From Candidatus Woesearchaeota archaeon (lineage in GTDB: Archaea; Nanobdellota; Nanobdellia; Woesearchaeales; JACPBO01): DNA of 64,000 bases. A program made the position numbers and the translations under genes. The stretch spans positions 48,189 through 112,188 of the forward strand of contig JACPBO010000005.1 in the NCBI GenBank assembly GCA_016180285.1, given 5' to 3'. The notes under the pieces are model-generated. The model was not told where the DNA came from. It did no database searches and worked only from the letters and a program-made list of their open reading frames with translations. Positions 5,330 to 25,933 of this stretch are shown piece by piece. Every line of letters starts with the position of its first letter. The stretch's first letter is position 1.

Positions 5330-5380
5330 CAGCCCGTATAAACTATAGTATCAATAAGATGAAACCATATATATTAATTT

Positions 5381-5905: not shown

Positions 5906-5941
5906 ATTCTAAAAAGAAAAGTTTTTTAAGCATCAAATTTT

Positions 5942-9139: not shown

Positions 9140-9171
9140 GATGTGATGTTTTAGGCATTGGCAGAATACAA

Positions 9172-10107: not shown

Positions 10108-10108
10108 C

Positions 10109-10726: not shown

Positions 10727-10794
10727 TTTTATCGCCTTCCTGCCCCAAAATAATCTGTGCCAATTAGATGTTAAGGTCTTGTACTTTTTAAATA

Positions 10795-11406
10795 TTACTG
10801 AATCTTAGCTATTCCTTCCATTATCTTCTGCCTGAAAATTTCATATCTCCAGTTGCTCAGCTTTTCTCCGTTAATGAAAAATGTAGGAGTTGCATCAACA
10901 CCCATATCTTCAGCTTTCCTCATGTCCCTTGCAACATAAGGCGCTTTTGCCCCTGAATCAAGGCAGTTGCTGAAGTTTTTCATGTCTAATTTTAGTTCTT
11001 TTGCATAGTTTTTCAGATTTCTTGGCGTCGGATCATCCAAGTTTGCATGCACTTTGTCAACAAATTCCCAAAATTTTCCCTGGTCATTCGCGCATTCTGA
11101 TGCTTCTGCTGCTTTAAACGCATATTGGTGCATTGGCAGCGGAAAATGCGCGTATTCCAGCTTTACATCATTTTTGAATTCATCCATTATTTTGTTGATA
11201 GTTGGATGGGCTGCCTTGCATGCAGGGCATTGGAGATCAGAAAACTCTGTTATTGTTATGCGAGCGCTTTCATTGCCTAAAACAGGCCTTGGCGTGTAAA
11301 TTTCGGGGTAATAAGGCTTATTAACATTTTTTAAATAAAAAAACAAAACTACCAGAATGATAAGAATAAAAAAACTATAACTCAGATATTTTTTCTTTAG
11401 CTTCAT
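10795..11406 (-). CDS. DsbA-family thiol:disulfide oxidoreductase, membrane-anchored
   Basis: N-terminal transmembrane segment and the motif [14 protein letters not shown] (CPAC) on a Trx fold with an inserted helical domain. Confidence 0.7.
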
Positions 11407-13832
11407 TTTATCTTTGCCTCATAAAGCCTCATCAAAAGTGAATTCCCGACAACGCTGACGCTGCTGAATGCCATTGCCGCAGCTGCTATGATCGGATTCA
11501 ATAAAAAGCCAGTAAATGGGTATAAGATTCCTGCTGCAATCGGAATCCCGGCTGTATTGTAAAAAAATGCCCAGAACAGGTTCTGCCTTATCTTCCTTAT
11601 TGTATAAGCGCTCAGGTCAATTGCGGTAACAACATCTCTCAGATCATTTTTGATCAAAACAATATTCCCTGTTTCAAGTGCAACATCTGTTCCGGCTCCG
11701 ATTGCAATTCCTATATCTGCCTGCGCAAGAGCAGGAGCATCATTTATGCCATCGCCGACAAATGCAACAATTTCGCCTTTATCCTGCAGCTTCCTGACTT
11801 CCTTTTCCTTGTCTTCAGGCAGCACTTCTGCAAGCACTTTGTCAATTCCGACCTGCCCTGCGATTGCGCCTGCTGTTCTTTTATTGTCGCCAGTTATCAT
11901 AATGACTTCCTTCTTCATCTTATGAAGCTGCTCAACTGCTTCTTTAGAATATTCTTTTAATGTATCCGCAACTGCGACCATGCCAATTACCCTGTTCCTC
12001 AGCGCAACGAGCATCACAGTATTGCCAAGATTCTCAAGCTCGGCAATTTTCGGCTCTATAATCCTTAACGGGAAATTCTCCATCATTTTTCTGTTGCCGA
12101 TTATGATTTCTTCATTTTTGTACTTTGCTTTAACGCCTTTTCCAGGAACTGCAATAAAAGATGAGGCACCGGTAAGTTTTATTTTTAATTCATCGCATTT
12201 TCTTATGATTGCTTCTGCAAGAGGATGCTCTGAGTTTTTCTCTGCAATCCCTGCAAATCTTATGATCTCCCTGTCTGTAATATTTGAAACAGAAACAATC
12301 TTTGTAACTTCTGGCTTTCCTTTTGTCAGGGTTCCTGTTTTGTCAAAGACAATTGCTGTCAGTTTATGCGCTGTCTCCAGTGCTTCTCCTGATTTTATCA
12401 GTATGCCGTTTTCTGCACCTTTCCCGGAGCCAACCATTATGGCAGTTGGCGTTGCCAGTCCAAGCGCGCATGGGCAGGCTATTATCAAAACTGCAATGAA
12501 AATGCTCAATGAAAACACAAAACTTTGGCCAAACAGCATCCAAAGGGCAAATGACAGGACTGCAATCCCGATAACTGTTGGAACGAAATAGCTGCTTACT
12601 TTATCAGCCAGCCTTTGTATCGGCGCTTTGCTGCCCTGCGCTTCCTCAACAAGCTTTATTATCTGCGACAACACAGTGTCTTTTCCTACTTTGGTTGCCT
12701 TGAATTTCAGAGCGCCGTTCTTGTTGATTGTAGCTCCGATCACATTGTCGCCGATTTTCTTTTCAACAGGAATGCTTTCGCCCGAGATCATTGACTCGTC
12801 AACTGCTGAATGCCCTTCAATTACAATGCCGTCAACCGGGATTTTCTCACCTGGCTTTATCAGCACGATATCCCCGGTGACAACATCATCAATGCTTACT
12901 TCAAGTTCTTTCCCGGACCTTATGACTCTTGCTGTTTTTGCCTGCAGGCCCATCAGCTTCTTTATCGCCTCTGATGTCTTGCCTTTCATTACTGCTTCCA
13001 GCAGTTTGCCCAGCAAAATGAATGTGATGATGATGGCTGCTGTATCATAATAAACTCCGCTTTTGAAAACATCAGGAATAAAAGTTACAAGAGCGCTGTA
13101 AATATAGGCTGCGCTTGTGCCCACTGCAATTAAAGTGTCCATATTTGCGGATTTATTTTTTAATGCTATCCACATTCCTGCATAAAACCTTCTTGCTAGA
13201 ATCAATTGCACAGGCGTTGTCAACGCGAACAGGACATAATTTGTGTAAGGCACAATTATCCTGAACCATTCTGGAAATGACAGCACAAAAATAGGAATGC
13301 TCAGCAAAAACCCGAAAAAAACCTCGATTTGCAGCCTTCTTATTTCTCTTTGCCTTGCCTCCTTCTCCTTGTCAGCTGATGCTGTTTCTTCGATCGGCTC
13401 GTAGCCTGCATTCTTTATTGCTTTCTTGATCTCACCAATATTTGCAAGAGCTGTATTAAATCTGACTATCGCTTTCTGATTAACAAGCAAGTCTTTTGAA
13501 ACAACGCCTTTGATTGTGCTTAACGCATCGCTTACTGCGCCGACACAATGCGGGTTGTCCATGCCGATGATTTTTAATTTTATCTCGGAAATGCCTTTCT
13601 CATTTGTTGCGCTTTCTTTTTTCTCTTCTTTTATTATCCCATAGCCTGTTTTTTCTATAGTTTTTTCTATCTCATCCTGATTTATTTTATTTTTATCAAA
13701 TTCAACAGCTGCCTTTTCAGATGCAAAATTCACGCCGGCATTGATTATGCCCTTTGCTTTTTTCAGCGATTTCTCTATTGTGTTTGCGCAGCTTGCGCAG
13801 TGCATGCCCGTTATTTTTATTGTTGTTTTCAT
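11403..13832 (-). CDS. copA: Copper-translocating P1B-type ATPase
   Basis: Two N-terminal heavy-metal-associated domains ([13 protein letters not shown] and [11 protein letters not shown]), transmembrane CPC ([13 protein letters not shown]), DKTGTLT phosphorylation site and GDGINDAP hinge. Confidence 0.9.
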
Positions 13833-14314
13833 TTTTTAGCCTTTATTTTGCAGCTGTTTAAATTGGATGATGTGCTTATTAAGATTAAGATCAATAACAG
13901 GGCAATAAATGCATTAACAAAAATATTAAATCCGGATATCAGCATGCCAATGCCGATTGTCGCGCTTGAAAAAGACAAAAGCAGAGGGGCGCATGTAGGG
14001 CAGACTGAAGTGAACAAGGCAGGAATTATTGCGAAATAACCATATGTTTTCTTACGCAAAGATAAATTCAACCTGAGACTGTAAATGTTCAGTGAAAATA
14101 TCAACCCGGAAAGGAGTGAGATTACAATTAAAAAAAACAAATTTAATGGCGTCCACAAATCAATTCTTACATAAAAGTTTGACAGCAAAATAAAGTTCCA
14201 TGCAAAAATGTAGATTGATGAAAAGACCAATGTAAAAACTGCAAAAAGCATCAAATAGGCCCAGTTGCCTAATACGCAGCTTATTCCATTCAGGCTTTGT
14301 TTTATTCTATTCAT
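13829..14314 (-). CDS. Polytopic membrane protein with CPTC motif, unknown function
   Basis: Four or five transmembrane segments and [10 protein letters not shown]. Overlaps the copA start by 4 nt. Confidence 0.35.
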
Positions 14315-14421
14315 TGAGGATAATGATTTTTTACTTCATTATTCAAGTTTATTAATATTTATTTTTTATTTATTTTTCTAAAAGCTGACCTTTACAGCCA
14401 TCTTCATGGCCATTTTTACAC

Positions 14422-14619
14422 TTATTTCTTTATTTCCTTACGATGGCCAGCATCATCATATTCATAAAGCTTGCCTTCTTCTTCACCATTGCATAATTTA
14501 TGCGAACCATCGCAGAAAGGCTGGTTTTTCGACAAGCCGCACATGCAGATCCATGCAGACTCCTTCTGCGGTTTAATTTCAAGCGGTACATTCGCCGCCT
14601 TTATTACTTTTCTACTCAT
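14422..14619 (-). CDS. CDGSH iron-sulfur domain protein (mitoNEET-like)
   Basis: CMCGLSKNQPFCDGSH matches the CDGSH signature C-x-C-x(n)-C-D-G-S-H. Confidence 0.7.
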   Translation of the reverse strand: MSRKVIKAANVPLEIKPQKESAWICMCGLSKNQPFCDGSHKLCNGEEEGKLYEYDDAGHRKEIKK

Positions 14620-14659
14620 TGTCTCACCTCTCTTTTATTTTTAAAATAAAATAACGCCT

Positions 14660-14935
14660 TTATTTGATTTTTCCATTGAAATAATTGTACAGCCAGGCAA
14701 ACAATGCCCCTGCTATTGCGCCTATAACCATGACCTCGACTAGCCCAAGTACCACGCTTCCAATTGAAACATTTGCTTTCGCTATCAATGTAAGATCAAT
14801 GCCGTGGAATATGGCATTAAAAAATTTTAATGACCCTGCGGGCCACAATGCAATAATCGCAGCGCAGGCCAGTGAAAGTATTCCGCCTACGATGGCCAAT
14901 GCCAATGCTGTTGTTTTTACACTTAATTTTTCCAT
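14660..14935 (-). CDS. Small membrane protein
   Basis: A 91-aa protein with three hydrophobic helices. Confidence 0.3.
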   Translation of the reverse strand: MEKLSVKTTALALAIVGGILSLACAAIIALWPAGSLKFFNAIFHGIDLTLIAKANVSIGSVVLGLVEVMVIGAIAGALFAWLYNYFNGKIK

Positions 14936-14986
14936 TTTTTAGCGCCTCTTATTTCATATTTTTGTTTGCCATTCGCATTTTACACT

Positions 14987-15217
14987 TTAATGGCATTTGC
15001 CTTTATGCATATCTTTCATAATGAAGAAATGCATCAGCGGGCACAACAACAAAATAAGCCAATATAGGTAATTTTTGCCAATCCCAAAAAAATATGCAGC
15101 TGCGATTAATAAAATTAAGACCGCCAAGCAGCATACCAGCATAGTTATGCCTTTTGTATGCTTTACGCCTTTGCAGCCTTCTTCGGCTGTTCTTTTTTTG
15201 CCGGCAATTTTCTTCAT
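14987..15217 (-). CDS. Small two-transmembrane Cys/His membrane protein (DUF2933-like)
   Basis: LLLCPLMHFFIMKDMHKGKCH resembles the small metal-resistance-locus membrane proteins. Confidence 0.35.
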   Translation of the reverse strand: MKKIAGKKRTAEEGCKGVKHTKGITMLVCCLAVLILLIAAAYFFGIGKNYLYWLILLLCPLMHFFIMKDMHKGKCH

Positions 15218-15268
15218 TTAACAGCACCCTTTCTTTCCTTTTCCCATTTTCTTCACCTCCAGTTGATT

Positions 15269-15427
15269 TTACCTTTGCACTGCGTGCTTTGTGATCTCGA
15301 TATTGCAGCTGTGATGCTCTTTGCACCATTTCTGGCATTTTTCAGCCCATTTCTTGTCTTTGTAGGCAAAATTGCATTCTTCACAGATGAAAAGCTCTTT
15401 GTCGCTTTTAATTTCTTGCTTTACCAT
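15269..15427 (-). CDS. Small (52 aa) TRASH-like / zinc-ribbon metal-binding protein; below the ORF-track size cutoff
   Basis: MVKQEIKSDKELFICEECNFAYKDKKWAEKCQKWCKEHHSCNIEITKHAVQR has the C-x2-C...C-x3-C pattern of the TRASH-like domains found in archaeal metal-sensing regulators and metallochaperones. It overlaps the phosphatase gene start by about 20 nt. Confidence 0.4.
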   Translation of the reverse strand: MVKQEIKSDKELFICEECNFAYKDKKWAEKCQKWCKEHHSCNIEITKHAVQR

Positions 15428-15887
15428 TTTGCACCATTTCCTCGAAGTTTATCAGTGATTGGATTTGGGACCTGTTTGGATGTATGATTGGCCTTTTCCT
15501 CTTGATTAGCTTTATCGCCTCGATTGCAGTTTTGCCTTCTAAAATGAAATATGCTGCTACAAGTGTTGGAGCCCTTGCGTGACCATGCTCACAATGAACA
15601 TATACCTTGACTTCATTATCGACCAGCTTCTTAATAAAATTTGCCCCAATCAAAAGCTGTTTAAATGCCGGCGCTTTGTGGTCTTTTGTAGGCAGCCACA
15701 AATAATAGCCTACGCCAAATGGCTGGTCTAGCCTCATTTCTTCCAAGCTTATGTCAGCTCTAACGCCCTTTTTTATCAAGGATTTCTTAAAATGAGAGCT
15801 GCAGCACTGGTTTGTGCCAATGTAAATAAGCTTTGTGATTTCGGAATATTCAAAAATCGGTTTTTCTGGATGGATATTTTCAGGCAT
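15408..15887 (-). CDS. Dual-specificity / protein-tyrosine phosphatase
   Basis: VHCEHGHARAP fits the HC-x5-R P-loop. Confidence 0.7.
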   Translation of the reverse strand: MPENIHPEKPIFEYSEITKLIYIGTNQCCSSHFKKSLIKKGVRADISLEEMRLDQPFGVGYYLWLPTKDHKAPAFKQLLIGANFIKKLVDNEVKVYVHCEHGHARAPTLVAAYFILEGKTAIEAIKLIKRKRPIIHPNRSQIQSLINFEEMVQNGKARN

Positions 15888-15916
15888 TTTTATTTTCCTC
15901 GTTCATTTTATTTGCA

Positions 15917-16219
15917 TCATCTTTCACCCGCAACTATTTTCTCGCAAAACTCGTGCATGTGCTTGTCTATAAGGTTCATCAGGGGCTTTATTGTTTTTTT
16001 GTTTAGCGCGTATATCCTGTGCTTGCCTTTTTTTGCCATAAAAACAAATCCGCACTTTTCAAGCCTTTCAAGATTGTGTGAAACAGTTGTTTGGTTGAAA
16101 TCAAGCAGCTTGCAGATCTCGGAAACGCATTTAGGCGCTTTTCTCAATGTGTTTATTATCTCTAGCCTTCTTTCATTGTCCAGCGTCCCGAAGAATGTTT
16201 TATATGCCTTTTTAATCAT
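15917..16219 (-). CDS. ArsR/SmtB-family metalloregulator
   Basis: A 100-aa HTH protein (EICKLLDFNQTTVSHNLERLEKCGFV) with cysteines positioned as in metal-sensing ArsR proteins. Confidence 0.75.
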   Translation of the reverse strand: MIKKAYKTFFGTLDNERRLEIINTLRKAPKCVSEICKLLDFNQTTVSHNLERLEKCGFVFMAKKGKHRIYALNKKTIKPLMNLIDKHMHEFCEKIVAGER

Positions 16220-16261
16220 ATGTTGAGATAAGCATATGTTATTTATAAATGTTTCTGTTTT

Positions 16262-16546
16262 TTATGCCTTTACAAACAGCCCGCACCAGCACATTGGCTG
16301 CATTCCTGGCCTGGGCCTAAGCCATGTTTCATGAATGAAGAAGTTACAAGGGCAGATAAGCTCCATGTCTTTTTCAAATGTTCCATCTCTCAATCTGCAC
16401 GGGCACAGCTTCAGGCCGTGCTTTTGCTCATTTGACAATACGCCGTCTGCAACAATCTCAACATGCTTTCTGTCAGGGTTCAGCTTAAACGATCCGTTCT
16501 TTTTACTGAAAACATCCCAGACCCCGATCAATTCTTGCTTGTCCAT
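16262..16546 (-). CDS. Ferredoxin:thioredoxin reductase catalytic-subunit-like (FTR-like) protein
   Basis: LCPCRLRDGT...LICPCNFF...CWCG follows the CPC-x15-CPC-...-CxC arrangement of FTR beta-type Fe-S disulfide reductases. Confidence 0.6.
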   Translation of the reverse strand: MDKQELIGVWDVFSKKNGSFKLNPDRKHVEIVADGVLSNEQKHGLKLCPCRLRDGTFEKDMELICPCNFFIHETWLRPRPGMQPMCWCGLFVKA

Positions 16547-16556
16547 CTTGCGCTTG

Positions 16557-16703
16557 CTAAAGCTTCGTTAATTTTTTTGCTTCAGTTGCCTCTATTTTAA
16601 CATACACATTGACATTCTTGCAGGTAGGGCATATTTCCGGGCCAGCCATTCCATAATGTATGTCGTTGCACACAGTGCACCTGAAAAACTGCTTGTCTGA
16701 CAT
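16557..16703 (-). CDS. Small (48 aa) rubredoxin-like zinc-ribbon protein; below the ORF-track size cutoff
   Basis: MSDKQFFRCTVCNDIHYGMAGPEICPTCKNVNVYVKIE contains C-x2-C-x15-C-x2-C. It starts 3 nt after the stop of the upstream membrane-protein gene. Confidence 0.4.
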   Translation of the reverse strand: MSDKQFFRCTVCNDIHYGMAGPEICPTCKNVNVYVKIEATEAKKLTKL

Positions 16704-16706
16704 TTT

Positions 16707-16967
16707 TCACCTCATGAATGGGTTGCCGAATGCAGCGAATGCAATTACAGCATGAAGCATTACAGATGCTGCTAAAAGCCACCAGTAATAGCAGTGATAT
16801 TTGTAGATTTTCATGTAAATCTTTGAATTGCTCAATGCTGCTGATTTTATGCCAATAATGCACCTGCATGAAAATAGAATCAAAAATAAAAAAACTATGT
16901 TTGCCCATCCCAATACATAAACGAACTTTATTCCGAGCGAAGGGTCTATTGCCATTTTACTCGACAA
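16707..16967 (-). CDS. Small membrane protein
   Basis: An 86-aa protein with two or three transmembrane segments. Confidence 0.3.
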   Translation of the reverse strand: MSSKMAIDPSLGIKFVYVLGWANIVFLFLILFSCRCIIGIKSAALSNSKIYMKIYKYHCYYWWLLAASVMLHAVIAFAAFGNPFMR

Positions 16968-17421
16968 TTATCGTTCCTGTAAATGCTGGGTTAAGATGGT
17001 CGTGGTATTTCCATGAGCCTTTGCTGTTGAATGTGAAGGAAAAGGACTCATCCTGAGCCAAGCTCCTGCATGCATCAAATTTGCTCCCTATGCAGCCCCC
17101 GCTTTCGGGATAAACTGAATGAGTTGGGTGCACAGCTGATGCTGGCCAATGGGCACTGCCGTCTTTATTTGTAAAAACAACAGTTTCACCTGCGCTGATA
17201 GCCAATGTCTTTGGGCTAAACCCGGATGATGTAATCTCGACAACATTCATTGCTGCTGATGTTTGCTGCTGCCCGGCTGTCTGCCCGCTGACATCAGTTA
17301 CCTGCTGTCCGGTTTGCTGATTTCCTGCTGTTCCGCTAGTTGTTGTCTGCGCAGCGCATCCTGCTATTAAAACCAATGCGGCCAAAAACAAAACAAAATA
17401 AATTCTTTTCATTTTATCCAC
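16957..17421 (-). CDS. Cupredoxin-like lipoprotein (the Cys ligand of the blue-copper site is replaced)
   Basis: Lipobox LIAGC and a Gln/Thr-rich linker. The C-terminal beta-sandwich segment WKYHDHLNPAFTGTIIV resembles the plastocyanin/azurin C-terminal strand. Confidence 0.45.
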   Translation of the reverse strand: MDKMKRIYFVLFLAALVLIAGCAAQTTTSGTAGNQQTGQQVTDVSGQTAGQQQTSAAMNVVEITSSGFSPKTLAISAGETVVFTNKDGSAHWPASAVHPTHSVYPESGGCIGSKFDACRSLAQDESFSFTFNSKGSWKYHDHLNPAFTGTIIVE

Positions 17422-17432
17422 CCCCTATCTGA

Positions 17433-17879
17433 TTAAAATTTAAGCTTGTAAACCCATGAAGGAATTTTTGCGCCTTTAACTTCATCATACTGCGGCCAAT
17501 AGGGCTTTATGTCAATTATTGGCGTTCCATCAATGATATCGAGGCCCTTTACTTTAATTTTGTTATTCCTATGATCAACTTCCACCAGCTTCACAGTTGT
17601 TATTGCAATCGGATTCGGCCTTGCAGGGCATCTGCATGCAAAAATCCCTACAATCGGCACATCAGGATTGCCCTGCGGCTGATGCTCAATAACGCTGCTT
17701 TTGACCTTGTCCATCCAATAAACAACAATAATGTGAGAATAATCCTCTACACCCTTTAGCGCGCCTGTGAATTTTTTGTCTATCACTATTTCAGAAACTT
17801 CATCGGCAAAATTTCCGAATCTCAGTTCCTTGATATTGTTTCTTACAATGCCAATTGGTTTCAAGATTATGTCTTTCAT
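17433..17879 (-). CDS. TsaA/YaeB (TrmO) family SAM-dependent tRNA methyltransferase
   Basis: PIGIVRNN...RPNPIAITTVKLVEV...GLDIIDGTPIIDIKPY. Confidence 0.75.
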   Translation of the reverse strand: MKDIILKPIGIVRNNIKELRFGNFADEVSEIVIDKKFTGALKGVEDYSHIIVVYWMDKVKSSVIEHQPQGNPDVPIVGIFACRCPARPNPIAITTVKLVEVDHRNNKIKVKGLDIIDGTPIIDIKPYWPQYDEVKGAKIPSWVYKLKF

Positions 17880-17887
17880 TTTTCTCT

Positions 17888-18298
17888 TTATGAATTTGGT
17901 AAAATTTTATCAAGCTCTCCAGCCACATAAGCTACGATTTCTGAGCAGAGATTTTTTCTTTCAGGGCTATCGAACTTATAATCAGCAGTAAGCAGGTTAC
18001 AACAAGTTACACTGTACTTTTCTTCAAATTTATCATAAATATGCTTGCTTAAGTCATTAGCTTTTTTAGAGTCTTCACTTTTCTCTGATCTGCCATAATG
18101 TAAGCCAATAGCCATTGTAGCCCCAGAAATTGCTCCACAAATGCATCCACTTCCCCCAATTCCTGCTCTAAAGCCTGTTGCAGAACGCAAAACTTCATCT
18201 GTAACTGGGTGTCCTGTTTGTTTCATTGCATGCAATACTGCTTCTGTACAACTATATCCTTCAAGATACAGTTTTTTTGCTGATTCAGCTAAACTCAT
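17888..18298 (-). CDS. C_GCAxxG_C_C family putative redox protein
   Basis: YSCTEAVL...GSGCICGAISGA...CCNL spacing is typical of that family. Confidence 0.7.
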   Translation of the reverse strand: MSLAESAKKLYLEGYSCTEAVLHAMKQTGHPVTDEVLRSATGFRAGIGGSGCICGAISGATMAIGLHYGRSEKSEDSKKANDLSKHIYDKFEEKYSVTCCNLLTADYKFDSPERKNLCSEIVAYVAGELDKILPNS

Positions 18299-18852
18299 TT
18301 TTTACCGCCTTTGTGTTTTGCATTATTCTTCCACAACTTTATGATCCATGAATAAACTAAAACAATCAAACCGATTAATGATATCACATAAAGCGCATTC
18401 AGGAAATTCCAATACCATGCATAACTGCCACTCATCATCCCATATCCCATCATGTTGCCTCCAATATTGCCGCTCATCATGTTAAATGAATTGCCCATCA
18501 TGCCGCCCCCCATCATATTGTTTCCCGCCATCATTGACATCATAGACATCATTCCCTGGCTTGTTTCACCGCAGTAAATTGATTTTGCCATCTGAATATG
18601 CATCTGCTTGACTGCAGCAGAATCTTCGCCGCCCATCATAGTGTGCATCAGCTCATGCGCTTCTCCAGAATGCATCTGCTCCATGTAATAATCACCCATA
18701 GCCTCAAGCTGCGCATCCGTTAGTTTGCTGCAGCTAATGTTGGAATCGATAAGCTGCTTTGTTTCATTGAAGTTTTCTTTCGCTAAAACAAAGCCGGTGT
18801 TTAATGCCAAAACCAAAAATACTGCCAAAAATACTGCAAATGATATTTTCAT
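18295..18852 (-). CDS. Secreted Met/Gly-rich protein with C-terminal transmembrane anchor; candidate Cu(I)-binding Met-motif protein
   Basis: Signal peptide followed by MSMMSMMAGNNMMGGGMMGNSFNMMSGNIGGNMMGYGMMSG and HxxMxxM-type motifs (EAHELMHTMMGG). Confidence 0.45.
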   Translation of the reverse strand: MKISFAVFLAVFLVLALNTGFVLAKENFNETKQLIDSNISCSKLTDAQLEAMGDYYMEQMHSGEAHELMHTMMGGEDSAAVKQMHIQMAKSIYCGETSQGMMSMMSMMAGNNMMGGGMMGNSFNMMSGNIGGNMMGYGMMSGSYAWYWNFLNALYVISLIGLIVLVYSWIIKLWKNNAKHKGGKK

Positions 18853-19367
18853 TTTCCCCCCATGGCCATTAATGCCCTTTTCTTTTTATTTTTTTCTCTT
18901 TTTTGCTTAATTTTAGTCTTTTTTTCTCCCCTGCTTTTGTAAAGCATTATTGCAATGCCTGCGGCATTAGAGAGTATTCCTATTAAAATAAACCAAATCG
19001 TATAGCCTGAAAGGGAAGCCAGCGCTGATACTCCTATGAAAGGCAGTATATTCACAAGATAATGGCTGCAGCACAATATCATGCTTGTTGCGGATAATCC
19101 GCCAGATGCCACTGTTGTTGTGCATCCAATTGCGCTTTTATGCCTCAGATAAGTGAAAAGGCCAATCTGAAAGCCAAAGCCTCCGATCAGCAAAACAAGC
19201 AAAGGAGAATATTTTTTGATCTGCGCAACAGCCATGCTTGGAAAGCCAAGGCTCCAAAGCACTATGAAATTTAACAGTAAAATCAATAAAATCCCAATGA
19301 TTCCATTTCTTACTGCCCTGTATTTAATGTCCATTTTCATTCTCCTTGATTTAATGTTTTTTAGCAA
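18849..19367 (-). CDS. Polytopic membrane protein, unknown
   Basis: Five transmembrane segments and a basic C-terminal tail. Confidence 0.3.
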   Translation of the reverse strand: MLKNIKSRRMKMDIKYRAVRNGIIGILLILLLNFIVLWSLGFPSMAVAQIKKYSPLLVLLIGGFGFQIGLFTYLRHKSAIGCTTTVASGGLSATSMILCCSHYLVNILPFIGVSALASLSGYTIWFILIGILSNAAGIAIMLYKSRGEKKTKIKQKREKNKKKRALMAMGGK

Positions 19368-20082
19368 AGTCTGTTATTGAAGCCAATTGACCCAAGATAT
19401 CTTCATTTTTGTCACCATAGCTTATAAGAATTTTATCTCCTTCGTTAAATACGTAATCTCTAAATTCAGTGTTTTCTTTCCTATTTATGTAAAATTTGAG
19501 GGATTTTTCTGCATTATTGCAATATTTTACTCCAGTATCTACTGTGAAGCAATCTTTTTCAAATTTCATTCCAATGCTTTCAAAGAAAATCCAAAGAGGA
19601 ACCCCTGTTGCATGCATATGCAAGACACTTGAAGCATCTTCTTTATTTAGGTTATCATCCACATGAATAAAACTGCTCTTCATATGATATTTTTCATTTG
19701 CGAAGTTAATTGAATTTCCATTTATAAAAACTTTAAAATCAGCATGGGTGTGCCCTGAACCAAGCACCCCAATCGTTGATTTAGAATCCATATTGCACTG
19801 CAGCTGGCCACTGTCTATGCATGCGCTTACATCCATGCCGCAAGCATCGCAAAGCCCATCATTATTTTTGTCCATTAATTTTCTGGCCAGTTGCTTATCA
19901 AAGGCAGTTAAAGCCATTTGGCTTGCAGAATGCATTTCAGTTAATTGTTTATTGGGATTATTGCCCTGAAAATTTAAAAAAGACACTGTGCTGAAGATCA
20001 AAGCAATAGCAGCTATAACTAAAAGCCCGTATAATAAATAATCCTCTTTGTTTTTTATTTTATTTGCTGTTTTTCTTTTCAT
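19351..20082 (-). CDS. Membrane-anchored extracytoplasmic Cys/His-rich protein, unknown
   Basis: Transmembrane anchor, then CDACGMDVSACIDSGQLQC and GSGHTHADFKVF...LHMHATG. Confidence 0.3.
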   Translation of the reverse strand: MKRKTANKIKNKEDYLLYGLLVIAAIALIFSTVSFLNFQGNNPNKQLTEMHSASQMALTAFDKQLARKLMDKNNDGLCDACGMDVSACIDSGQLQCNMDSKSTIGVLGSGHTHADFKVFINGNSINFANEKYHMKSSFIHVDDNLNKEDASSVLHMHATGVPLWIFFESIGMKFEKDCFTVDTGVKYCNNAEKSLKFYINRKENTEFRDYVFNEGDKILISYGDKNEDILGQLASITDFAKKH

Positions 20083-20663
20083 TTTTTCTCCATAAAAACA
20101 TTGTGCATGTATATTTTTCCACCGCCAGGCTCTGTGTGAATGGATTCTTTAATATAGGCTATTTTAAAAGGGCCTGAAAAATACCTTAAAATAGCCTCCT
20201 TTGAAATGCTCTTGTCAAAATGATTTTTATCGCTGAAGCACTGGATATAAACCCTGCCATTGCCTTTCAATAAATTAATAAGCCTTTTAACATATTTTGG
20301 CTTGTCTTTATCAGGGATATGGTGAAAGCATCCCCTGTCAAAAATAAAGTCAAATTTTTTGTTTGTCTTGAATTTCAATACCTTGCCTACAAGATAATTG
20401 CAAGCCAAGCCTTTTCTTAGGCACCTTTCTTTTGCCATATTTACTGCTGCAGGGGATATGTCAACTCCTGTAACCTTAAACCCCTTTGAAGCCAGATAAA
20501 TTGAGTTTGTACCTACTCCCGAACACATGTCAAGAACTTCTCCTGGCCTGATTTTACCCTGCTCAACAAGCTTCACAAGATTTTTTTCAGGATGTTCAGT
20601 ATGCCAGGGAATTTTTTCCAGCCTGTTCTCCCTGTATATCCTGTCCCACCCGTTTTTTTCCAT
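20079..20663 (-). CDS. Class I SAM-dependent methyltransferase
   Basis: VLDMCSGVGTNSIYLA (motif I) and FDFIFDRGCFHHI (post-I and II). Confidence 0.7.
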   Translation of the reverse strand: MEKNGWDRIYRENRLEKIPWHTEHPEKNLVKLVEQGKIRPGEVLDMCSGVGTNSIYLASKGFKVTGVDISPAAVNMAKERCLRKGLACNYLVGKVLKFKTNKKFDFIFDRGCFHHIPDKDKPKYVKRLINLLKGNGRVYIQCFSDKNHFDKSISKEAILRYFSGPFKIAYIKESIHTEPGGGKIYMHNVFMEKK

Positions 20664-20740
20664 TCTTGCCTTCGTATTGCTTAACTAGCTTGCTAGCAGC
20701 ATCCTTTTTTTCCTTTCCCCATTTTTGCACCTCATCCGCA

Positions 20741-21364
20741 TTATGATTTTTTAGCCACAAATATATTGGCATAACCTTTAAGCGCAGGAATTTTATTGAT
20801 AACTTTAAACTTATAGTATTCCAAATGCCTTTGAAAATCCCTGCTGAAAAAGTCATCAATGGCTTCTTTATCAATTATTCTCTCAATCCATTCCAATATT
20901 AAAAATGCTGTTGTTTGTTTTTTTGGCTCCACATATTCAACAAAAACCGCTGTGCCTCCTTTTTTCAATGTCCTGCAAATCTCTGCTATTGCCTTATTTC
21001 TGTCTTTGAATCTTAATTCATGCAACCCCAATGATTCGAATGCAATATCGAAGTAATTGTCTTCAAAGGGAATATTTTTTGCATCTGCAACAATGTATTT
21101 TGTGTTTTTGGAACTTGTTTTTTTCCTGGCTCTTCTTATCATATTTTCTGACAGATCAACCCCAAAAACATTGCCTTTGGCTTTTTCTGCAATCAGGCTC
21201 GTCAATGTTCCTGTGCCGCAAAAAAGATCCAGTATGTTTTTTGCATGCCCGATATCAACAGCATTTGCTGTGGCTTCCCTTAGCCTTTTCTCGCTTCCTA
21301 AAGGAAGCAAAAAGAGCCTGATTTCAAGGTCATAAAGCGCGCTTATTATTCCATTATAAAACAT
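20741..21364 (-). CDS. Class I SAM-dependent methyltransferase (UbiE/COQ5-like)
   Basis: ILDLFCGTGTLTSLIA, VFGVDLSENM and FDIAFESLGLHE. Confidence 0.7.
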   Translation of the reverse strand: MFYNGIISALYDLEIRLFLLPLGSEKRLREATANAVDIGHAKNILDLFCGTGTLTSLIAEKAKGNVFGVDLSENMIRRARKKTSSKNTKYIVADAKNIPFEDNYFDIAFESLGLHELRFKDRNKAIAEICRTLKKGGTAVFVEYVEPKKQTTAFLILEWIERIIDKEAIDDFFSRDFQRHLEYYKFKVINKIPALKGYANIFVAKKS

Positions 21365-21365
21365 T

Positions 21366-22190
21366 TTAGCTTACAGCTGCTGCTGATGACGATGCGTTTA
21401 TTATTGTGTTGTTTGCAATGTTTTTATAAACGACTTTCAGCACGCTCAAATCCCTGAAAATGTAGCTGCCGTCACCCTCAACTGATCCGACCTGCGGCCA
21501 AACTACTGCAAGCGAAGGATAGAGTCCAGCATCCTTTGACAATATGACTGTAGGCACAAATGTAATGTTGTATTTTCTAATCAGCTCCTTGCCTGTTTCT
21601 GATGAAATATCCGCGTATCTTTCTGCTGAAATGGCCATTCCAAAGTTTTGCGGATTTGAAAGTATTAGCTTATGGATTGTTACATTGTAGCAGGTTTTGC
21701 AGCTGCTGTCTGTCAGATATGTCAGCTCTACAAAGCCCTCTGCTTTTGATTTTGCAACATCAAAATAAGGGGGATTGATCAGCCTCAGGACGTAGCTGCC
21801 GTCTTTTTCCACACTCCCGATATCGCTCCAGACGCCTGTTATCTCTTTATATTGCGATGCTTCTTTTGAGAATACTAATGCCGGGAGCTTTAATATCTTG
21901 TATTTTTCAATTAATTGTTTTCCCTCTGCGCTGCTGGCATCAATTGTCTTTTCGCTTTCAAAGAAAATGCCTAAATTCTTTAGGGCAGGCACCAGGCCTG
22001 TCAAATCGCTGCAGCTATCGCATGAAGATGCTTTGAGGTAAATTGAAGAAATGCCTTTTTTAACAACTATTTGGCTGTTTATTCTGAATGTTATGAAAAT
22101 GTTTGTTAAGAACACTATCATGATAAGGGCAACAAGCAACAACTTGATATTTGTAAAGCCGAATTTTCTTTTTTTATTTTTTTCTTCCAT
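21366..22190 (-). CDS. Membrane-anchored protein with two tandem thioredoxin-like CxxC domains (PDI-like a-a' arrangement)
   Basis: Internal duplication of about 100 aa. Repeat 1 carries SSCDSCSDL...LPALVF...DIGSVEKDGSYVLR. Repeat 2 carries SSCKTCYNV...VPTVIL...QVGSVEGDGSYIFR. Both have the cis-Pro loop. Confidence 0.5.
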   Translation of the reverse strand: MEEKNKKRKFGFTNIKLLLVALIMIVFLTNIFITFRINSQIVVKKGISSIYLKASSCDSCSDLTGLVPALKNLGIFFESEKTIDASSAEGKQLIEKYKILKLPALVFSKEASQYKEITGVWSDIGSVEKDGSYVLRLINPPYFDVAKSKAEGFVELTYLTDSSCKTCYNVTIHKLILSNPQNFGMAISAERYADISSETGKELIRKYNITFVPTVILSKDAGLYPSLAVVWPQVGSVEGDGSYIFRDLSVLKVVYKNIANNTIINASSSAAAVS

Positions 22191-22207: not shown

Positions 22208-22669
22208 CTAAATCCTGCAGCCTGTTAATTCCGAAAGCCTTTCAAAGCTCTGCACTTTTTCGTATCGTTCATTGTTTATTATCCATGTCGGAGTCACTTT
22301 TATATCTGGCCCTTTCTGGTAATCCCTGTAATCAACATACTTGAATGAGTTCCCGAACATTTTGGCCTGCTGCTTTGTGTACTGGCACCATTCAATTGCG
22401 CCATACATCACTGCTCCCTTTTCTTTTAAGCATTTTGCAAAATCATCATAGGCGCCTGGCTTTGATGCAGAATAGATGCTGTATGCCACAATAGCTATTA
22501 TTATAACAGCGATAACTGACAGGATTGTTATTTTATTTCTTTTTTTAGATGCTGCATTTTCTTTTCTTTCCTTATCCAGCTGCTCTCTCTGCTGCCTTAG
22601 CTGCTCTGCTTCCTCACGAAGCTTCTGCTGCCTTTTTTCATCCATCTCCTTTTTGCTTAATTCTTCCAT
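22208..22669 (-). CDS. Membrane-anchored thioredoxin-like protein (CxxT variant)
   Basis: Charged cytoplasmic N-terminus and one transmembrane segment, then YGAIEWCQYTKQQ, which resembles VKOR-associated Trx domains (YGAxWCxxC) with a single Cys. Confidence 0.45.
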   Translation of the reverse strand: MEELSKKEMDEKRQQKLREEAEQLRQQREQLDKERKENAASKKRNKITILSVIAVIIIAIVAYSIYSASKPGAYDDFAKCLKEKGAVMYGAIEWCQYTKQQAKMFGNSFKYVDYRDYQKGPDIKVTPTWIINNERYEKVQSFERLSELTGCRI

Positions 22670-22695: not shown

Positions 22696-22908
22696 TCAAA
22701 ACAACTCTTTAACTGAATTAATTTTCTCAACTGCATTGTTTGCGCCTGTATTTTCCGGCCCGATGACTCCGCAGCCGCCGCCAACTGGCCCGCTCGGTGG
22801 AGCGCTGCCGCTGCCATAATCGCCGCTTGAGCATCCTGCAACAAAAATTAAGCCAACAATCAATAACAACATTAATGCTGTTTTCATATTAGTTTTTTCC
22901 ATTTTCAC
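22696..22908 (-). CDS. Small lipoprotein with internal PVGGGCG motif
   Basis: Lipobox LIFVAGC followed by a Gly/Ser-rich stretch and VGGGCGV. Confidence 0.4.
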   Translation of the reverse strand: MKMEKTNMKTALMLLLIVGLIFVAGCSSGDYGSGSAPPSGPVGGGCGVIGPENTGANNAVEKINSVKELF

Positions 22909-22911
22909 ACC

Positions 22912-23112
22912 TCAACATCCGCCTACCATTCCGCTGGATGAGCTTGCTGCTGGCGCAGATGCTGCTGCACCTGAAGATGTTGCAGTTGCGCCTGAAACTG
23001 CAGCTGTTCCGCTGCTCAGCTTTGTTTTTATTGTGTTCAGCTCAAATGCCTGCACAACTGATACGAGCAATAAAACGCCCAATACAATTGCTATTATTAT
23101 GTTTTTGTCCAT
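22912..23112 (-). CDS. Small secreted protein ending in MVGGC-COOH (paralog family member 1)
   Basis: Signal peptide with predicted cleavage after VQA, an Ala/Ser/Thr-rich linker and the C-terminus SSSSGMVGGC directly before the stop. The stop codon was verified on the reverse strand. Confidence 0.45.
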   Translation of the reverse strand: MDKNIIIAIVLGVLLLVSVVQAFELNTIKTKLSSGTAAVSGATATSSGAAASAPAASSSSGMVGGC

Positions 23113-23140: not shown

Positions 23141-23434
23141 TCATTTTACTTTTTTAATCAATTTAACCAATAAATAAACAATCAAAACCAAAACAGCCAA
23201 ATACAAAACCTGTCCAATTAAGTATAAGCTGCTATAGCCGCCCATGTAGCCGGCAGTAATTGAATTTCCTGCCATCATTGAGCTGCCTAAATCGCTTACA
23301 GCCATGCCTGTTGCAGCTGGAGCCCCACTAGCTGCCTCGCTGTGATTATCCATTCCAGCGCATGCCAAAACCGGCAACGCAGTTAATGATAGCGCTAATA
23401 AAAAAAGCACAATCAATAAAAAGGACTTTTTCAT
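23141..23434 (-). CDS. Small Met-rich protein with signal peptide/lipobox-like N-terminus and C-terminal transmembrane anchor
   Basis: VLACAGMDNHSEAASGAPAATGMAVSDLGSSMMAGNSITAGYMGG followed by a transmembrane segment. Confidence 0.4.
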   Translation of the reverse strand: MKKSFLLIVLFLLALSLTALPVLACAGMDNHSEAASGAPAATGMAVSDLGSSMMAGNSITAGYMGGYSSLYLIGQVLYLAVLVLIVYLLVKLIKKVK

Positions 23435-23707
23435 TTAGCAGCCACCCACCATTGTTGGCGCGACAGATCCTGAACTGCTGCTTTGCCCGATTCTCGCAGG
23501 AATAGTTCCATGCATTTCATAATTCATTTTTTCGTTCTCTGTCCATCCTGTTGTGTCGAGCTTGCCGCTTGCTGCGGCGCTTACGCCTGTTGCAAGGCCT
23601 GCTGCAGGCACCTTGGACCTGATATCCATCAATTGGAATGCCTGAATAAACGAAACTATCAGGATAGCTGACAGAAAGACAACAATTATTGTTATTTTTT
23701 TGTCCAT
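23435..23707 (-). CDS. Small secreted protein ending in MVGGC-COOH (paralog family member 2); start taken at MDKKITII
   Basis: Its N-terminus is homologous to that of the 22912..23112 protein (MDKxIxI..VL..L.VS..QAF.L). C-terminus SSSSGSVAPTMVGGC. The ATG lies 1 nt after the stop of the upstream gene. Confidence 0.45.
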   Translation of the reverse strand: MDKKITIIVVFLSAILIVSFIQAFQLMDIRSKVPAAGLATGVSAAASGKLDTTGWTENEKMNYEMHGTIPARIGQSSSSGSVAPTMVGGC

Positions 23708-23708
23708 C

Positions 23709-24422
23709 TTAACAACCTCCAACCATTGCCCCGCCAGATGATGTTGCTCCTTTTTCTATTCCCCTGTATTTGTTTGATGCCAAATTGATGTAATTCAGCT
23801 CAATTCCCTTGGACTGCAATATCGCAGCTTTCTGCGTCATTATGCCGGGGAAAAACAATGTTTTCCATTTTCCAAGCTCTTCCAAAATCTCGTCATTTGT
23901 GAATTCACTTGGATGCTTGCTTACCAAATATTTTGCCAATCCGCGCATTGCACCGCTGTGGGCGCAGCCGCATGCAGCAGCCCCATTTTTAAAGATAATT
24001 GCCTCAGCTCCGCAGCAGTATTCGCAGCTTATCTGCGTGCCAACAGCTATATAGCGCTGCAAAGCATCCCCTGTTAATGTAATTGATCTATCATAAACGC
24101 TCATCTTATTTATCGCTGCATTCGCCTTTCTTGCATCATTCGGAGAAATATCATCATAGCTTAAGCCAAGTTCTGCTCCATAAATCTTTGGAATTCCTGT
24201 CGGAATAACAGAACCCTGCAGATTTGATGAGCTTACTGCTGTGCTGCCGGAGCTTGATGCTGTTGAAATGCCTGTTGCTGCAAATCTAGATCCAATGCTC
24301 GATATCTGCCATTGGTTAAAAATAACAAGCAGAGCGATAACAACTATCAGCCAAATGCTCAATTTGTTTATCGTTTCCTTTAAATTTGCTTTTTTGTTCT
24401 TAGATTCCATTTTTAATTTCAC
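23709..24422 (-). CDS. Membrane-anchored Cys-rich protein ending in MVGGC-COOH (paralog family member 3)
   Basis: Transmembrane anchor, Ser-rich linker, SCEYCCGAEAIIFKNGAAACGCAHSGAMRG and C-terminus KGATSSGGAMVGGC. Confidence 0.45.
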   Translation of the reverse strand: MKLKMESKNKKANLKETINKLSIWLIVVIALLVIFNQWQISSIGSRFAATGISTASSSGSTAVSSSNLQGSVIPTGIPKIYGAELGLSYDDISPNDARKANAAINKMSVYDRSITLTGDALQRYIAVGTQISCEYCCGAEAIIFKNGAAACGCAHSGAMRGLAKYLVSKHPSEFTNDEILEELGKWKTLFFPGIMTQKAAILQSKGIELNYINLASNKYRGIEKGATSSGGAMVGGC

Positions 24423-24471: not shown

Positions 24472-24993
24472 TTATTCTTTGCAGCAATCAATTATTTTCT
24501 TTACGATGTTTGCAAGCTTCTCCTTCCAGCTGCTGCTTTGAGTCTGGATCATTTCGCCTGATTTTATTAATTTCAGATTCAGGCTCCAAAATAAAGTGTA
24601 AAGGTCAAATGCATTCTTGAAAAACATCTGCGCTTTCGCATCGTCTTTTTTGCTTAAATGCTTATTCCCGACTTCAATCAGGCGCATGCTTGCCCCGAGC
24701 AGATGCTTGCTTATGCACCACACTTCGCCTTCAGGCTCTTTAACTATCTCCTTAAGCAGATTTTTTCTTAGCTCTCTTATTTGATTTAAAAGCTCAATGT
24801 AGCTCTTCTTATTCGTTTTCATTGCGCTGAAATACATGTGCTCTTCTATGCTTATAAGATTCATCAGCGCTATGCTCAGGTCTTCATCTGACGAAAGGTC
24901 AACTTTGCCTTTACTTTTAAGTTCACTTGCCCTTTTTACAAGCTCATTCACATCCATCTTAATGTTTTCAGCCATCATCTTATCGCCAGCCAC
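24472..24993 (-). CDS. hypothetical soluble protein
   Basis: A 173-aa protein with no motif. It is co-directional with the cluster and overlaps the upstream gene by 19 nt. Confidence 0.3.
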   Translation of the reverse strand: MAGDKMMAENIKMDVNELVKRASELKSKGKVDLSSDEDLSIALMNLISIEEHMYFSAMKTNKKSYIELLNQIRELRKNLLKEIVKEPEGEVWCISKHLLGASMRLIEVGNKHLSKKDDAKAQMFFKNAFDLYTLFWSLNLKLIKSGEMIQTQSSSWKEKLANIVKKIIDCCKE

Positions 24994-25487
24994 ACTATTG
25001 CGCTTGTTATTGCCAATAATGCCAAAATAAAAGCAATTGTCTGGAACGGAAATATAGCCTTGTTTTTGTTGATCTGCTTCACATTGCTGCTAATGAACAA
25101 TCCTGCATAAACTAAAATGCTGCCCGCTATTATGCCCAATAATAATTTATCTACTCCAAAAATCCTGCTTGCATTGAATAATCCTCCAAAATAAAATGAG
25201 ATTATTGTTGCAGCAAATATCAATATTGCAACAATTTGGCCTTGGAACGGGATGTATTTCTTCTTCAGCATGTTGTTGAACCATAATGCAGTTGAAATTA
25301 TAAATGCGCCGACCCACAGCCCGACAATCATATCATCAACGCCGTAAAATCTCGTGATAACGATTCCTGCGCCGACAGCAGCTGTGCATAGCGGGCAATG
25401 CGCGCTTACAAGCGGCACAAATGCAGTTAGCGAAAAGAACAGCATCAACATAAAAATCAGGCTTCTTTTCATTTTATTTTCACTCAT
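24975..25487 (-). CDS. Polytopic membrane protein with HCPLC in the first transmembrane segment (possible membrane thiol-oxidoreductase partner)
   Basis: Five transmembrane segments and SAHCPLCTAAVGAG in the first. Confidence 0.4.
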   Translation of the reverse strand: MSENKMKRSLIFMLMLFFSLTAFVPLVSAHCPLCTAAVGAGIVITRFYGVDDMIVGLWVGAFIISTALWFNNMLKKKYIPFQGQIVAILIFAATIISFYFGGLFNASRIFGVDKLLLGIIAGSILVYAGLFISSNVKQINKNKAIFPFQTIAFILALLAITSAIVWLAIR

Positions 25488-25933
25488 TAAGGCGGAAGGG
25501 GCGTCTTTGTTCCCATATCAGTATATCTTTGATCAACATATTTTGTGTCTATGTATTCCCTTGTCTCTTTCAATGACATGCCTTGCTTAAGCAGCTCGTC
25601 TGCCTTTAATGCTATGGCAACGCATGCAGGGCAGTCAATTGCAGCATGATCCTGCCAGCTTCCGTCTTCATTTATGAAGCATTCCTTGAGGCTGTGCATT
25701 ATCGGGATTGTTTTTCCCCTGTGCTGCATTTCATGCATGAAATCATCCTGCCTGTCAAGCGCAATGCTGTAAGCCAGCTTGTTTTTATAATTATTCATCA
25801 CAAAACTCGGCAGCATGTTTTCATTTGCAAGCATTGGCATTTGTTTTTTTGATGTGTTTAGTATGATTGCCAATGAAAAAATTACCAATACAATCAATGC
25901 CAATCCGGCAATCAGCTTTGTTTTTGCATTCAT
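25487..25933 (-). CDS. Membrane-anchored protein with CPAC motif
   Basis: Transmembrane anchor, then HAAIDCPACVAIALK. Confidence 0.35.
   Translation of the reverse strand: MNAKTKLIAGLALIVLVIFSLAIILNTSKKQMPMLANENMLPSFVMNNYKNKLAYSIALDRQDDFMHEMQHRGKTIPIMHSLKECFINEDGSWQDHAAIDCPACVAIALKADELLKQGMSLKETREYIDTKYVDQRYTDMGTKTPLPP

Follow-up and report, generated by a model that had tools for sequence, protein, structure and literature searches.

A gene on the minus strand of the 64-kb stretch of Candidatus Woesearchaeota DNA analysed here (the window) raises the question of what a membrane-anchored protein with two CxxC-bearing, thioredoxin (Trx)-like units does in an archaeon, and with which partners. 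An earlier note, made from the sequence alone, had proposed that this gene, here called multi-Trx, belongs to an oxidative-folding or isomerase pair. We find that its product belongs to a family of tandem Trx-fold proteins whose genes lie in a recurrent cluster of other cysteine proteins. We give about even odds to its being the membrane-anchored, multi-site Trx component of a conserved, metal-linked envelope thiol relay, with a predicted role as reductase or isomerase.

Two divergent thioredoxin folds behind a membrane anchor

The product of multi-Trx is 100 % identical to the NCBI hypothetical protein HYU07_01475 from a metagenome-assembled genome (MAG) of Candidatus Woesearchaeota. Its elements are as follows, the helix and the motifs having been placed by translation:

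21366..22190, minus strand: multi-Trx gene, open reading frame with a product of 274 residues
22077..22145, minus strand: N-terminal hydrophobic signal-anchor helix, residues 16-38, KLLLVALIMIVFLTNIFITFRIN
21753..22058, minus strand: Trx-fold unit A, residues 45-146, equivalent to unit 2 of the three-unit family
22011-22022, minus strand: CDSC (residues 57-60) of the unit A active site, SSCDSC
21870-21890, minus strand: Pro loop of unit A, KLPALVF
21783-21818, minus strand: hairpin of unit A, GSVEKDGSYVLR
21417..21743, minus strand: Trx-fold unit B, residues 150-258, equivalent to unit 3 of the three-unit family
21690-21701, minus strand: CKTC (residues 164-167) of the unit B active site, SSCKTC
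21540-21560, minus strand: Pro loop of unit B, FVPTVIL
21453-21488, minus strand: hairpin of unit B, GSVEGDGSYIFR

The proposal of two mutually alignable units of about 100 residues held up: in a BLASTP comparison, residues ~45-146 matched residues ~148-272 with 36 identities in 89 positions (40 %; E=5e-23), far above the chance level, which indicates that the internal duplication is real. The motifs singled out in the earlier note (SSCDSC, SSCKTC, LPALVF, VPTVIL and the GSVE.DGSY.R strands) were all recovered at their places by translation, and the hairpin consensus GSVExDGSYxxR is present in both units. In an alignment of 86 homologues, C57, C60, C164, C167 and P213 were invariant, whereas P103 and His173, the latter six residues past the CxxC of unit B, were at least 90 % conserved. 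The residue preceding the conserved Pro is Leu or Val in the window protein, and Ile, Val or Ala across the family.

An AlphaFold2 model built with an 86-sequence alignment as input had a mean pLDDT of 91.9 and a pTM of 0.78, and agrees with the proposed combination of a membrane anchor and two Trx-fold CxxC units. The N-terminal hydrophobic segment was modeled as a single long helix (residues 12-39), and each unit as beta1, CxxC loop, alpha, beta2, alpha, Pro, beta3, a helical segment and a beta-hairpin. Both halves thus show the beta-alpha-beta-alpha-beta-beta core of the Trx fold, with the CxxC between beta1 and alpha1 and the Pro loop before beta3, as expected for this fold. Additionally, HMMER aligned CDSC with the CGPC of thioredoxin 6bkv, and K-L-P-A-L with its S-I-P-T-L.

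A Foldseek search of the PDB retrieved as best matches the two-unit archaeal protein disulfide oxidoreductases (PDO) 1j08 and 1a8l, followed by Trx1-Trx2 of QSOX1, a0a of ERp72 and the N-terminal domain of AhpF; the global TM-scores to these matches were only ~0.2, indicating that the units are packed differently. The family profile matched PDO with E=5.8e-9 and 3.5e-8, Aquifex PDO with E=4e-6 over two units, and the N-terminal domain of AhpF with ~4e-5. Judging from the model and the profile matches, both halves are predicted to be divergent Trx folds whose nearest kin are the PDO and AhpF N-terminal domain group; the structure prediction that the earlier note had recommended as a check therefore returned two such folds. 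Filing the protein as a thioredoxin, a PDO or a DsbA through curated models was attempted and rejected, all scores being below cut-off.

A large family that normally carries three units

A word-indexed search identified 213 homologues, the named ones being all from Woesearchaeota, Nanoarchaeota or Micrarchaeota, and an exhaustive profile search of 1.84 billion representatives returned 795 clusters (50 % identity) at E<=1e-30 and just 1,242 at E<=1e-3. By these profile scores the family is large and sharply delimited, being found in DPANN archaea and a few bacteria of the Candidate Phyla Radiation (CPR). The records are MAGs of DPANN and CPR organisms, and several isolate names mention groundwater. 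The claim that a protein of this kind is unusual in archaea was not sustained for DPANN, given the 795 clusters; two-unit CxxC proteins of the PDO type, which are cytoplasmic, have also long been known in archaea (PMC1188242).

Three CxxC units were present in 243 of 260 members (93 %), two in 13 and four in four; none had fewer than two, and the loss of CxxC motifs among orthologues, which the earlier note would have taken as a refutation, was not seen. Only two units occur in the window protein and its two close orthologues (82-84 % identity). Since the units of these three proteins score best against the models of units 2 and 3, unit 1 is the missing one, and the shortness of the protein is not due to a truncated gene call, because the upstream gene stops 17 nt ahead of the start codon. 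By comparison with these unit models, the window protein is a shortened, two-unit (2+3) form of a normally three-unit family. Between the two Cys of the CxxC, unit 1 typically has S/A/N/T-D, unit 2 E/A/T-K and unit 3 T/A-E.

Variation in unit number, from two to four, would suit a non-catalytic surface scaffold, with the repeats as structural modules and the CxxC pairs as stabilising disulfides. N-x-S/T sequons such as those of archaeal surface proteins also occur in the window protein (NVT169, NIT208, NNT260 and NAS265), and fit an extracellular location under any model. Nevertheless, hardly any unit departs from the CxxC and the Pro loop, a purely structural role is rare for a CxxC located at the Trx active site, and multi-Trx is linked to genes for other thiol proteins and for CcdA, as described below; we regard a scaffold as very improbable.

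The gene belongs to a conserved cluster of cysteine proteins

A scan using one genome per species yielded 71 loci, of which 69 non-redundant loci were used for motif and clustering counts; a second count set comprised the 49 loci for which over 3 kb of upstream sequence was available. The 71 loci come from Woesearchaeota, Nanoarchaeota, Micrarchaeota, Aenigmatarchaeota and Altiarchaeota, along with a few records labelled WWE3, Patescibacteria or Zambryskibacteria. Upstream of multi-Trx, the order of genes is: a transmembrane (TM) protein with a CxYCC motif, a protein of ~65 residues ending in MVGGC, a lipoprotein of ~70 residues with VGGGCG, a protein with a WCxYT domain, and multi-Trx itself. 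Synteny with the window is complete in a close relative (L001), and the same upstream order is kept in two distant three-unit relatives (L003 and L004). The recurrence of each component was:

multi-Trx: 69/69 loci
CxYCC protein: 53/69 loci; 38/49 with enough upstream sequence
small MVGGC protein: 45/69 loci (45-50 of 69-71 for homologues of the 66-residue protein); 31/49 with enough upstream sequence
His-rich protein (H-x-H-A-D): 43/69 loci, in a cluster with which some DsbA-like proteins were merged
WCxYT protein: 36/69 loci; 24/49 with enough upstream sequence
VGGGCG lipoprotein: 30/69 loci; 19/49 with enough upstream sequence
DsbD_TM/CcdA: 25/69 loci; 23/49 with enough upstream sequence
winged-helix (helix-turn-helix) regulator: 21/69 loci
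cupredoxin: 14/69 loci; 14/49 with enough upstream sequence

The DsbD_TM gene, when present, is usually situated directly upstream of the CxYCC gene and on the same strand, at the head of the operon. All window genes between 16957 and 26214 point the same way, and the gaps separating them range from -19 to +77 nt. No Pfam or NCBIfam model reached its cut-off with the core families of the cluster, and the CxYCC and His-rich families lacked any match. The searchable full-text literature, including that on disulfides, thioredoxin or CcdA in DPANN, contained no description of the multi-Trx family, the MVGGC motif or the cluster. The members of the cluster in the window, apart from multi-Trx, are:

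22208..22669, minus strand: WCxYT protein, 153 residues, TM-anchored, with a single active-site Cys (W-C-Q-Y-T)
22696..22908, minus strand: predicted lipoprotein, 70 residues, with a lipobox (...VAGC) and a conserved PVGGGCGV
22912..23112, minus strand: MVGGC protein, 66 residues, with an N-terminal hydrophobic helix, a Ser/Ala/Gly linker and a C-terminal ...MVGGC
23435..23722, minus strand: MVGGC protein, 95 residues, with a TM helix, a linker containing the motif WTENEKMNYEMHG, and an MVGGC end
23709..24422, minus strand: CxYCC protein, 237 residues, TM-anchored, with an invariant C-E-Y-C-C...C-G-C-x-H-S centre
19351..20082, minus strand: His-rich protein, 243 residues, TM-anchored, with H-x-H-A-D ... 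H-x-H-A

The adjacency of multi-Trx to MVGGC proteins, already noticed in the first reading of the sequence, was confirmed for the open reading frames at 22912-23112, 23435-23722 and 23709-24422. The same applies to the neighbour of 153 residues at 22208-22669, which had been described as a single-Cys Trx-like protein: its profile matched, with E=4e-11, the Trx-like domain and the preceding TM helix of the Synechococcus VKOR (3kp9/4nv2). The CPHC of VKOR is replaced in this protein by C-[KQ]-Y-T, and in an alignment of 19 orthologues C80 and C151 were also invariant, probably forming a structural pair.

The CxYCC protein, with about 2,000 homologues, has five core Cys and a flexible C-terminal tail ending in MVGGC, which provides the sixth. 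Its predicted model resembles CcmH, a non-Trx thiol reductase fed by CcmG and DsbD, and the sole local alignment of both proteins, which is not significant, pairs RCPKC with SCEYCC. We also considered whether the CxYCC protein could be a divergent PCYCGC protein (PF13798), which was rejected because the hhalign comparison with the PCYCGC protein of L001 was not significant and 70 members gave no Pfam match.

In the 66-residue MVGGC protein the terminal Cys is the sole Cys, and its homologues mostly end in LPxMVGGC; proteins similar to the 95-residue one occur in two loci, L079 and L080. The small MVGGC proteins (also L003:6074-6268 and L004:6150-6344) share a TM helix with a conserved ...QAxQL, a low-complexity linker and the LPxMVGGC end. 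The tail varies by lineage, with LPSMVGGC, LPDMVGGC and LPSMQGGC, and with IPQQVGGC/LPTQVGGC in Micrarchaeia (L024, L026, L028, L052, L055 and others); within one genome, the variant of the large protein is identical or almost identical to that of the small ones, suggesting that both co-evolve with a shared reader. The PVGGGCGV of the lipoprotein resembles the MVGGC tail, and its gene sits between the MVGGC and WCxYT genes in ~30 loci. Each of the small MVGGC proteins, like the lipoprotein, has one free Cys, in a VGG(G)C context. The two small MVGGC genes of the window flank an open reading frame for a Met-rich protein of 97 residues (23141-23434, minus strand) that begins with a signal peptide and has a TM helix at its C-terminus; it is a lineage-specific insertion, because L001 has a 43-nt spacer in its place.

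The His-rich protein has 502 homologues and no Pfam or NCBIfam family. Its gene lies directly downstream of multi-Trx in most relatives, whereas in the window it is split off by two genes for S-adenosylmethionine-dependent methyltransferases (UbiE-like and TPMT/TehB-like; 20079-21364, minus strand). This insertion is restricted to the lineage of the window, with a nearby homologue in just two other loci; the methylation of thiols and metalloids is associated with enzymes of the TPMT/TehB type.

Two overlapping genes upstream of the CxYCC gene (24975-25487 and 24472-24993, minus strand) encode a multi-TM protein, in which ...SAHCPLCT... comes after the initial hydrophobic segment, and a soluble, helical protein with ...IIDCCKE at its end. 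Both have homologues in L080, and the AHCPLCT membrane protein also has one in L079; neither could be assigned to a family, and the pair could be another transmembrane thiol device. The adjacent PCYCGC-family gene contains an in-frame deletion of 30 nt around nt 25700 that removes exactly EYIACYCGCG, the signature of the PCYCGC family, which is retained in the otherwise near-identical orthologue of L001 (6517-6993).

Copper and heavy-metal genes recur near the cluster

The window also carries, on the strand of the cluster, the following genes:

4388-5329, minus strand: GILT-like protein
10795-11406, minus strand: DsbA-like protein (Thioredoxin_4, E=9e-29)
11403-13832, minus strand: two-HMA P-type ATPase, CopA
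15917-16219, minus strand: ArsR-type regulator
16262-16546, minus strand: FTR-beta-like protein
16957-17421, minus strand: cupredoxin lipoprotein
17888-18298, minus strand: C_GCAxxG_C_C protein
18295-18852, minus strand: Met-rich (MMGGGMMG) protein
25487-25933, minus strand: PCYCGC-family protein

The co-directional stretch 4388-18852 (minus strand) also includes genes for a DUF5676 protein, a dual-specificity phosphatase and a TrmO-like protein, and several of its products match NCBIfam models annotated as (seleno)protein families. The gene for the DsbA-like protein is directly downstream of that for the two-HMA P-type ATPase.

Among the multi-Trx loci L006-L076, CopA homologues were found in nine and BlaI/CopY-family regulators in 12. 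Three further loci (L078, L079 and L080) were found through the CxYCC protein. In L080, CopZ and CopA lie directly upstream, the multi-Trx gene encodes two units and there is an HMA-DsbD_TM fusion. A DUF411/CopG lipoprotein is encoded in L079, and a three-unit multi-Trx gene, a BlaI/CopY-family regulator and a BlaR-like protease occur in L078. A reading of the 393-residue protein of L078 as a DUF411 fusion was dropped, because Pfam gave just a weak glutaredoxin match. L046 (WWE3) carries an HMBD P-type ATPase, an ICMT-family methyltransferase, DsbD_TM and a rhodanese. In this single locus the ICMT-family gene (L046:5844-6539) closely precedes an MVGGC gene, the product of which has Cys as its last residue, an arrangement suggestive of modification of the C-terminal Cys; ICMT-family genes are also found in metal-resistance operons. 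The association with metal genes is thus recurrent, not universal.

This recurrence would also suit a metal chaperone of the Sco, ScsC or CopZ type, in which the CxxC pairs and the conserved His of unit 3 bind Cu(I) and exchange it with the MVGGC and CxYCC proteins. The at least 90 % conservation of His173 is in line with such a role, as are the Met and Cys motifs of the putative partners (MVGGC, CxYCC...CGC), which are of the general kind seen in Cu(I) sites. However, a conserved Pro loop within an overall Trx-type active site is characteristic of disulfide exchange, units 1 and 2 lack a conserved His or Met beside the CxxC, the frequent CcdA partner implies transfer of electrons and not of metal, and the metal genes are absent from most loci. 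We consider a metal chaperone quite unlikely.

A predicted reductive role at the cell surface

In the reading that we prefer, the multi-Trx protein would be an outward-facing thiol-disulfide oxidoreductase, predicted to perform disulfide exchange and anchored by its N-terminal helix. A CcdA/DsbD-type transporter, encoded in many of the relatives, would import reducing equivalents to the tandem Trx units, and these, together with the single-Cys WCxYT neighbour, would reduce or reshuffle disulfides on the Cys proteins of the cluster itself. The candidate clients are the five-Cys protein with a CcmH-like model and the membrane-tethered peptides with a single Cys in a VGG(G)C motif. Such a set of proteins would be prone to form mixed disulfides, which a CxxC protein could then resolve: the CxYCC protein has an odd number of core Cys plus a tail Cys, the small proteins and the lipoprotein have a single free Cys each, and the WCxYT protein has a single active-site Cys. 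In this way, metal-binding or metal-damaged envelope thiols would be kept reduced, thiol protection being a probable purpose because the cluster recurs next to copper and heavy-metal genes.

We place the Trx units outside the cell (N-in/C-out), an orientation suggested by the long, highly charged N-terminal tail of the homologues, by the signal peptides and lipoboxes of the partners, and by the conserved N-x-S/T sequons. The reductive direction is favoured because CcdA/DsbD_TM is the only recurrent membrane redox partner, no family of the DsbB or VKOR kind recurs near the gene, and the window encodes a separate DsbA-like protein.

The same Trx units could instead insert or proofread disulfides in secreted Cys-rich proteins, as do DsbA or PDI (protein disulfide isomerase), with the WCxYT protein as an isomerase partner; this is close to the oxidative-folding pair of the earlier note. 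A predicted extracytoplasmic location of CxxC Trx units suits such a catalyst, the nearest solved kin, PDO, act as oxidases as well as reductases and isomerases in vitro (PMC1188242), the conserved Pro follows a Val, Leu or Ile, in the manner of DsbA and Trx, and the window is without a CcdA gene. Nevertheless, no reoxidising partner of the DsbB, VKOR or Erv type was found among the recurrent neighbours or in the annotated parts of the window, a task of this sort already has a candidate in the DsbA-like protein at 10795-11406, and the operon is headed by CcdA/DsbD_TM in 23 of the 49 loci. Additionally, the CxxC dipeptides (S/T-D, E/A-K, T/A-E) include neither the Pro-His of DsbA nor the Gly-His of PDI. 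An oxidative-folding catalyst thus appears unlikely, and a reductase or isomerase is the more likely activity of the protein.

Several observations weigh against a reductive, metal-linked relay. An HMM (hidden Markov model) built from 33 neighbours detected no CcdA/DsbD_TM in the 64-kb window, and there is none within 10 kb in L001, so that any reductive partner in this lineage is putative. The charge flanking the TM helix is neutral, with +3 at either side, and the positive-inside rule is therefore not decisive for the topology. Curated Trx, PDO and DsbA models from Pfam and NCBIfam gave only sub-threshold scores with the window protein, and the likeness of the CxYCC protein to CcmH is structural only, since hhalign found no significant similarity (probability 0.5 %). 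A Leu or Val before the conserved Pro is more DsbA- or Trx-like than the Thr of DsbC, DsbG and CcmG. Finally, copper genes are present in a minority of loci only (cupredoxin in 14/49, CopA in nine).

Beyond this role for a single protein, we advance with considerable doubt that DPANN archaea and some CPR bacteria possess an undescribed envelope thiol system, running from CcdA to the Trx units and from these to the five-Cys protein and to Cys-tipped tethered peptides. The latter would be swinging arms, with one Cys at the extreme C-terminus (...LPxMVGGC) or in a VGGGCG loop, and the single-Cys, VKOR-type Trx domain would be their mixed-disulfide partner. As tethered thiols, the arms might serve as a surface-bound substitute for a small-molecule thiol buffer, or as a Cu(I) relay beside the CopA exporter.

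DPANN and CPR organisms are generally described as having very small genomes and little respiratory or quinone metabolism. The gene studied here points to a widespread, conserved and wholly unannotated set of envelope thiol proteins. If the relay exists, it would account for the way in which surface thiols stay reduced, or exported copper is handled, in these organisms, and a new type of carrier for electrons or metal would come into view: a peptide tethered to the membrane and ending in Cys. Taken alone, the window protein contributes less: it would show that tandem Trx units of the PDO kind, known from the cytoplasm of thermophiles, are also deployed at what is predicted to be the surface of DPANN and CPR cells. 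More novelty may lie in the surrounding system than in this protein.

Comparison with known systems

The PDO proteins (1A8L from P. furiosus, 1J08 from P. horikoshii; TIGR02187) gave the best match to the multi-Trx family, both in profile (E=5.8e-9) and in Foldseek searches, and likewise consist of tandem Trx/glutaredoxin-fold units with a CxxC each. However, they are cytoplasmic, restricted to thermophiles and without a membrane anchor, with both units fused in a continuous sheet (PMC1188242). The window protein shares with them the two tandem CxxC units, whereas it has a TM helix and its family, from DPANN and CPR MAGs, normally has three units, each with a conserved E-x-DG-S-Y-x-x-R hairpin. 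The global superposition is poor (TM-score 0.2), and the TIGR02187 score of 21.4 bits is far from the cut-off of 185, leaving the protein outside the curated family.

With eukaryotic PDI (a-b-b'-a', CGHC) the protein shares the presence of more than one catalytic Trx-fold CxxC domain in a predicted extracytoplasmic chain. The description as PDI-like (a-a') in the earlier note therefore stands as an analogy at the level of the fold, but not as a class assignment, since the protein has CDSC and CKTC in place of CGHC, contiguous units of ~100 residues and no b/b' domains, and scores below the thresholds of curated models (15.2 with PF00085, cut-off 23.5). DsbA differs in its helical insertion domain, which is lacking from the ~100-residue units; PF01323 gave no match, and neither DsbB nor VKOR is among the recurrent neighbours.

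The CcmG/ResA/TlpA proteins, which with CcmH act in pathways of cytochrome c and CuA maturation, resemble the window protein in being membrane-anchored, extracytoplasmic Trx proteins with a CxxC, the orientation being a predicted one in our case. A CcdA/DsbD_TM donor like that of these pathways is encoded in the operon in 23/49 relatives, and is absent from the window and from the 10 kb around the gene in L001. The family has no Redoxin, AhpC-TSA or CcmH membership in Pfam and carries several Trx units instead of one. There are no genes for heme lyase, CcmF, CcsBA or cytochrome c among its recurrent neighbours, and the CxYCC protein has five core Cys and a C-terminal one, as opposed to the single LRCxxC of CcmH.

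The Scs system combines the DsbD-like ScsB with the Trx-fold proteins ScsC and ScsD, and is thus similar in having, within an operon, an importer of the DsbD superfamily and envelope Trx-fold CxxC proteins. CcdA, DsbD and ScsB are importers of reductant, ScsC is an isomerase that is kept reduced, and ScsB/ScsC confer copper tolerance (PMC3322552). The cluster described here differs in its distribution in archaea and CPR bacteria, in the lack of detectable homology to ScsC or ScsD, and in its MVGGC, CxYCC and His-rich proteins, without counterpart in Scs; its link with copper is one of gene neighbourhood only. Although not a member of either group by sequence, the window protein would, by analogy, work most like an anchored Trx protein of the CcmG/ResA/TlpA or Scs type.

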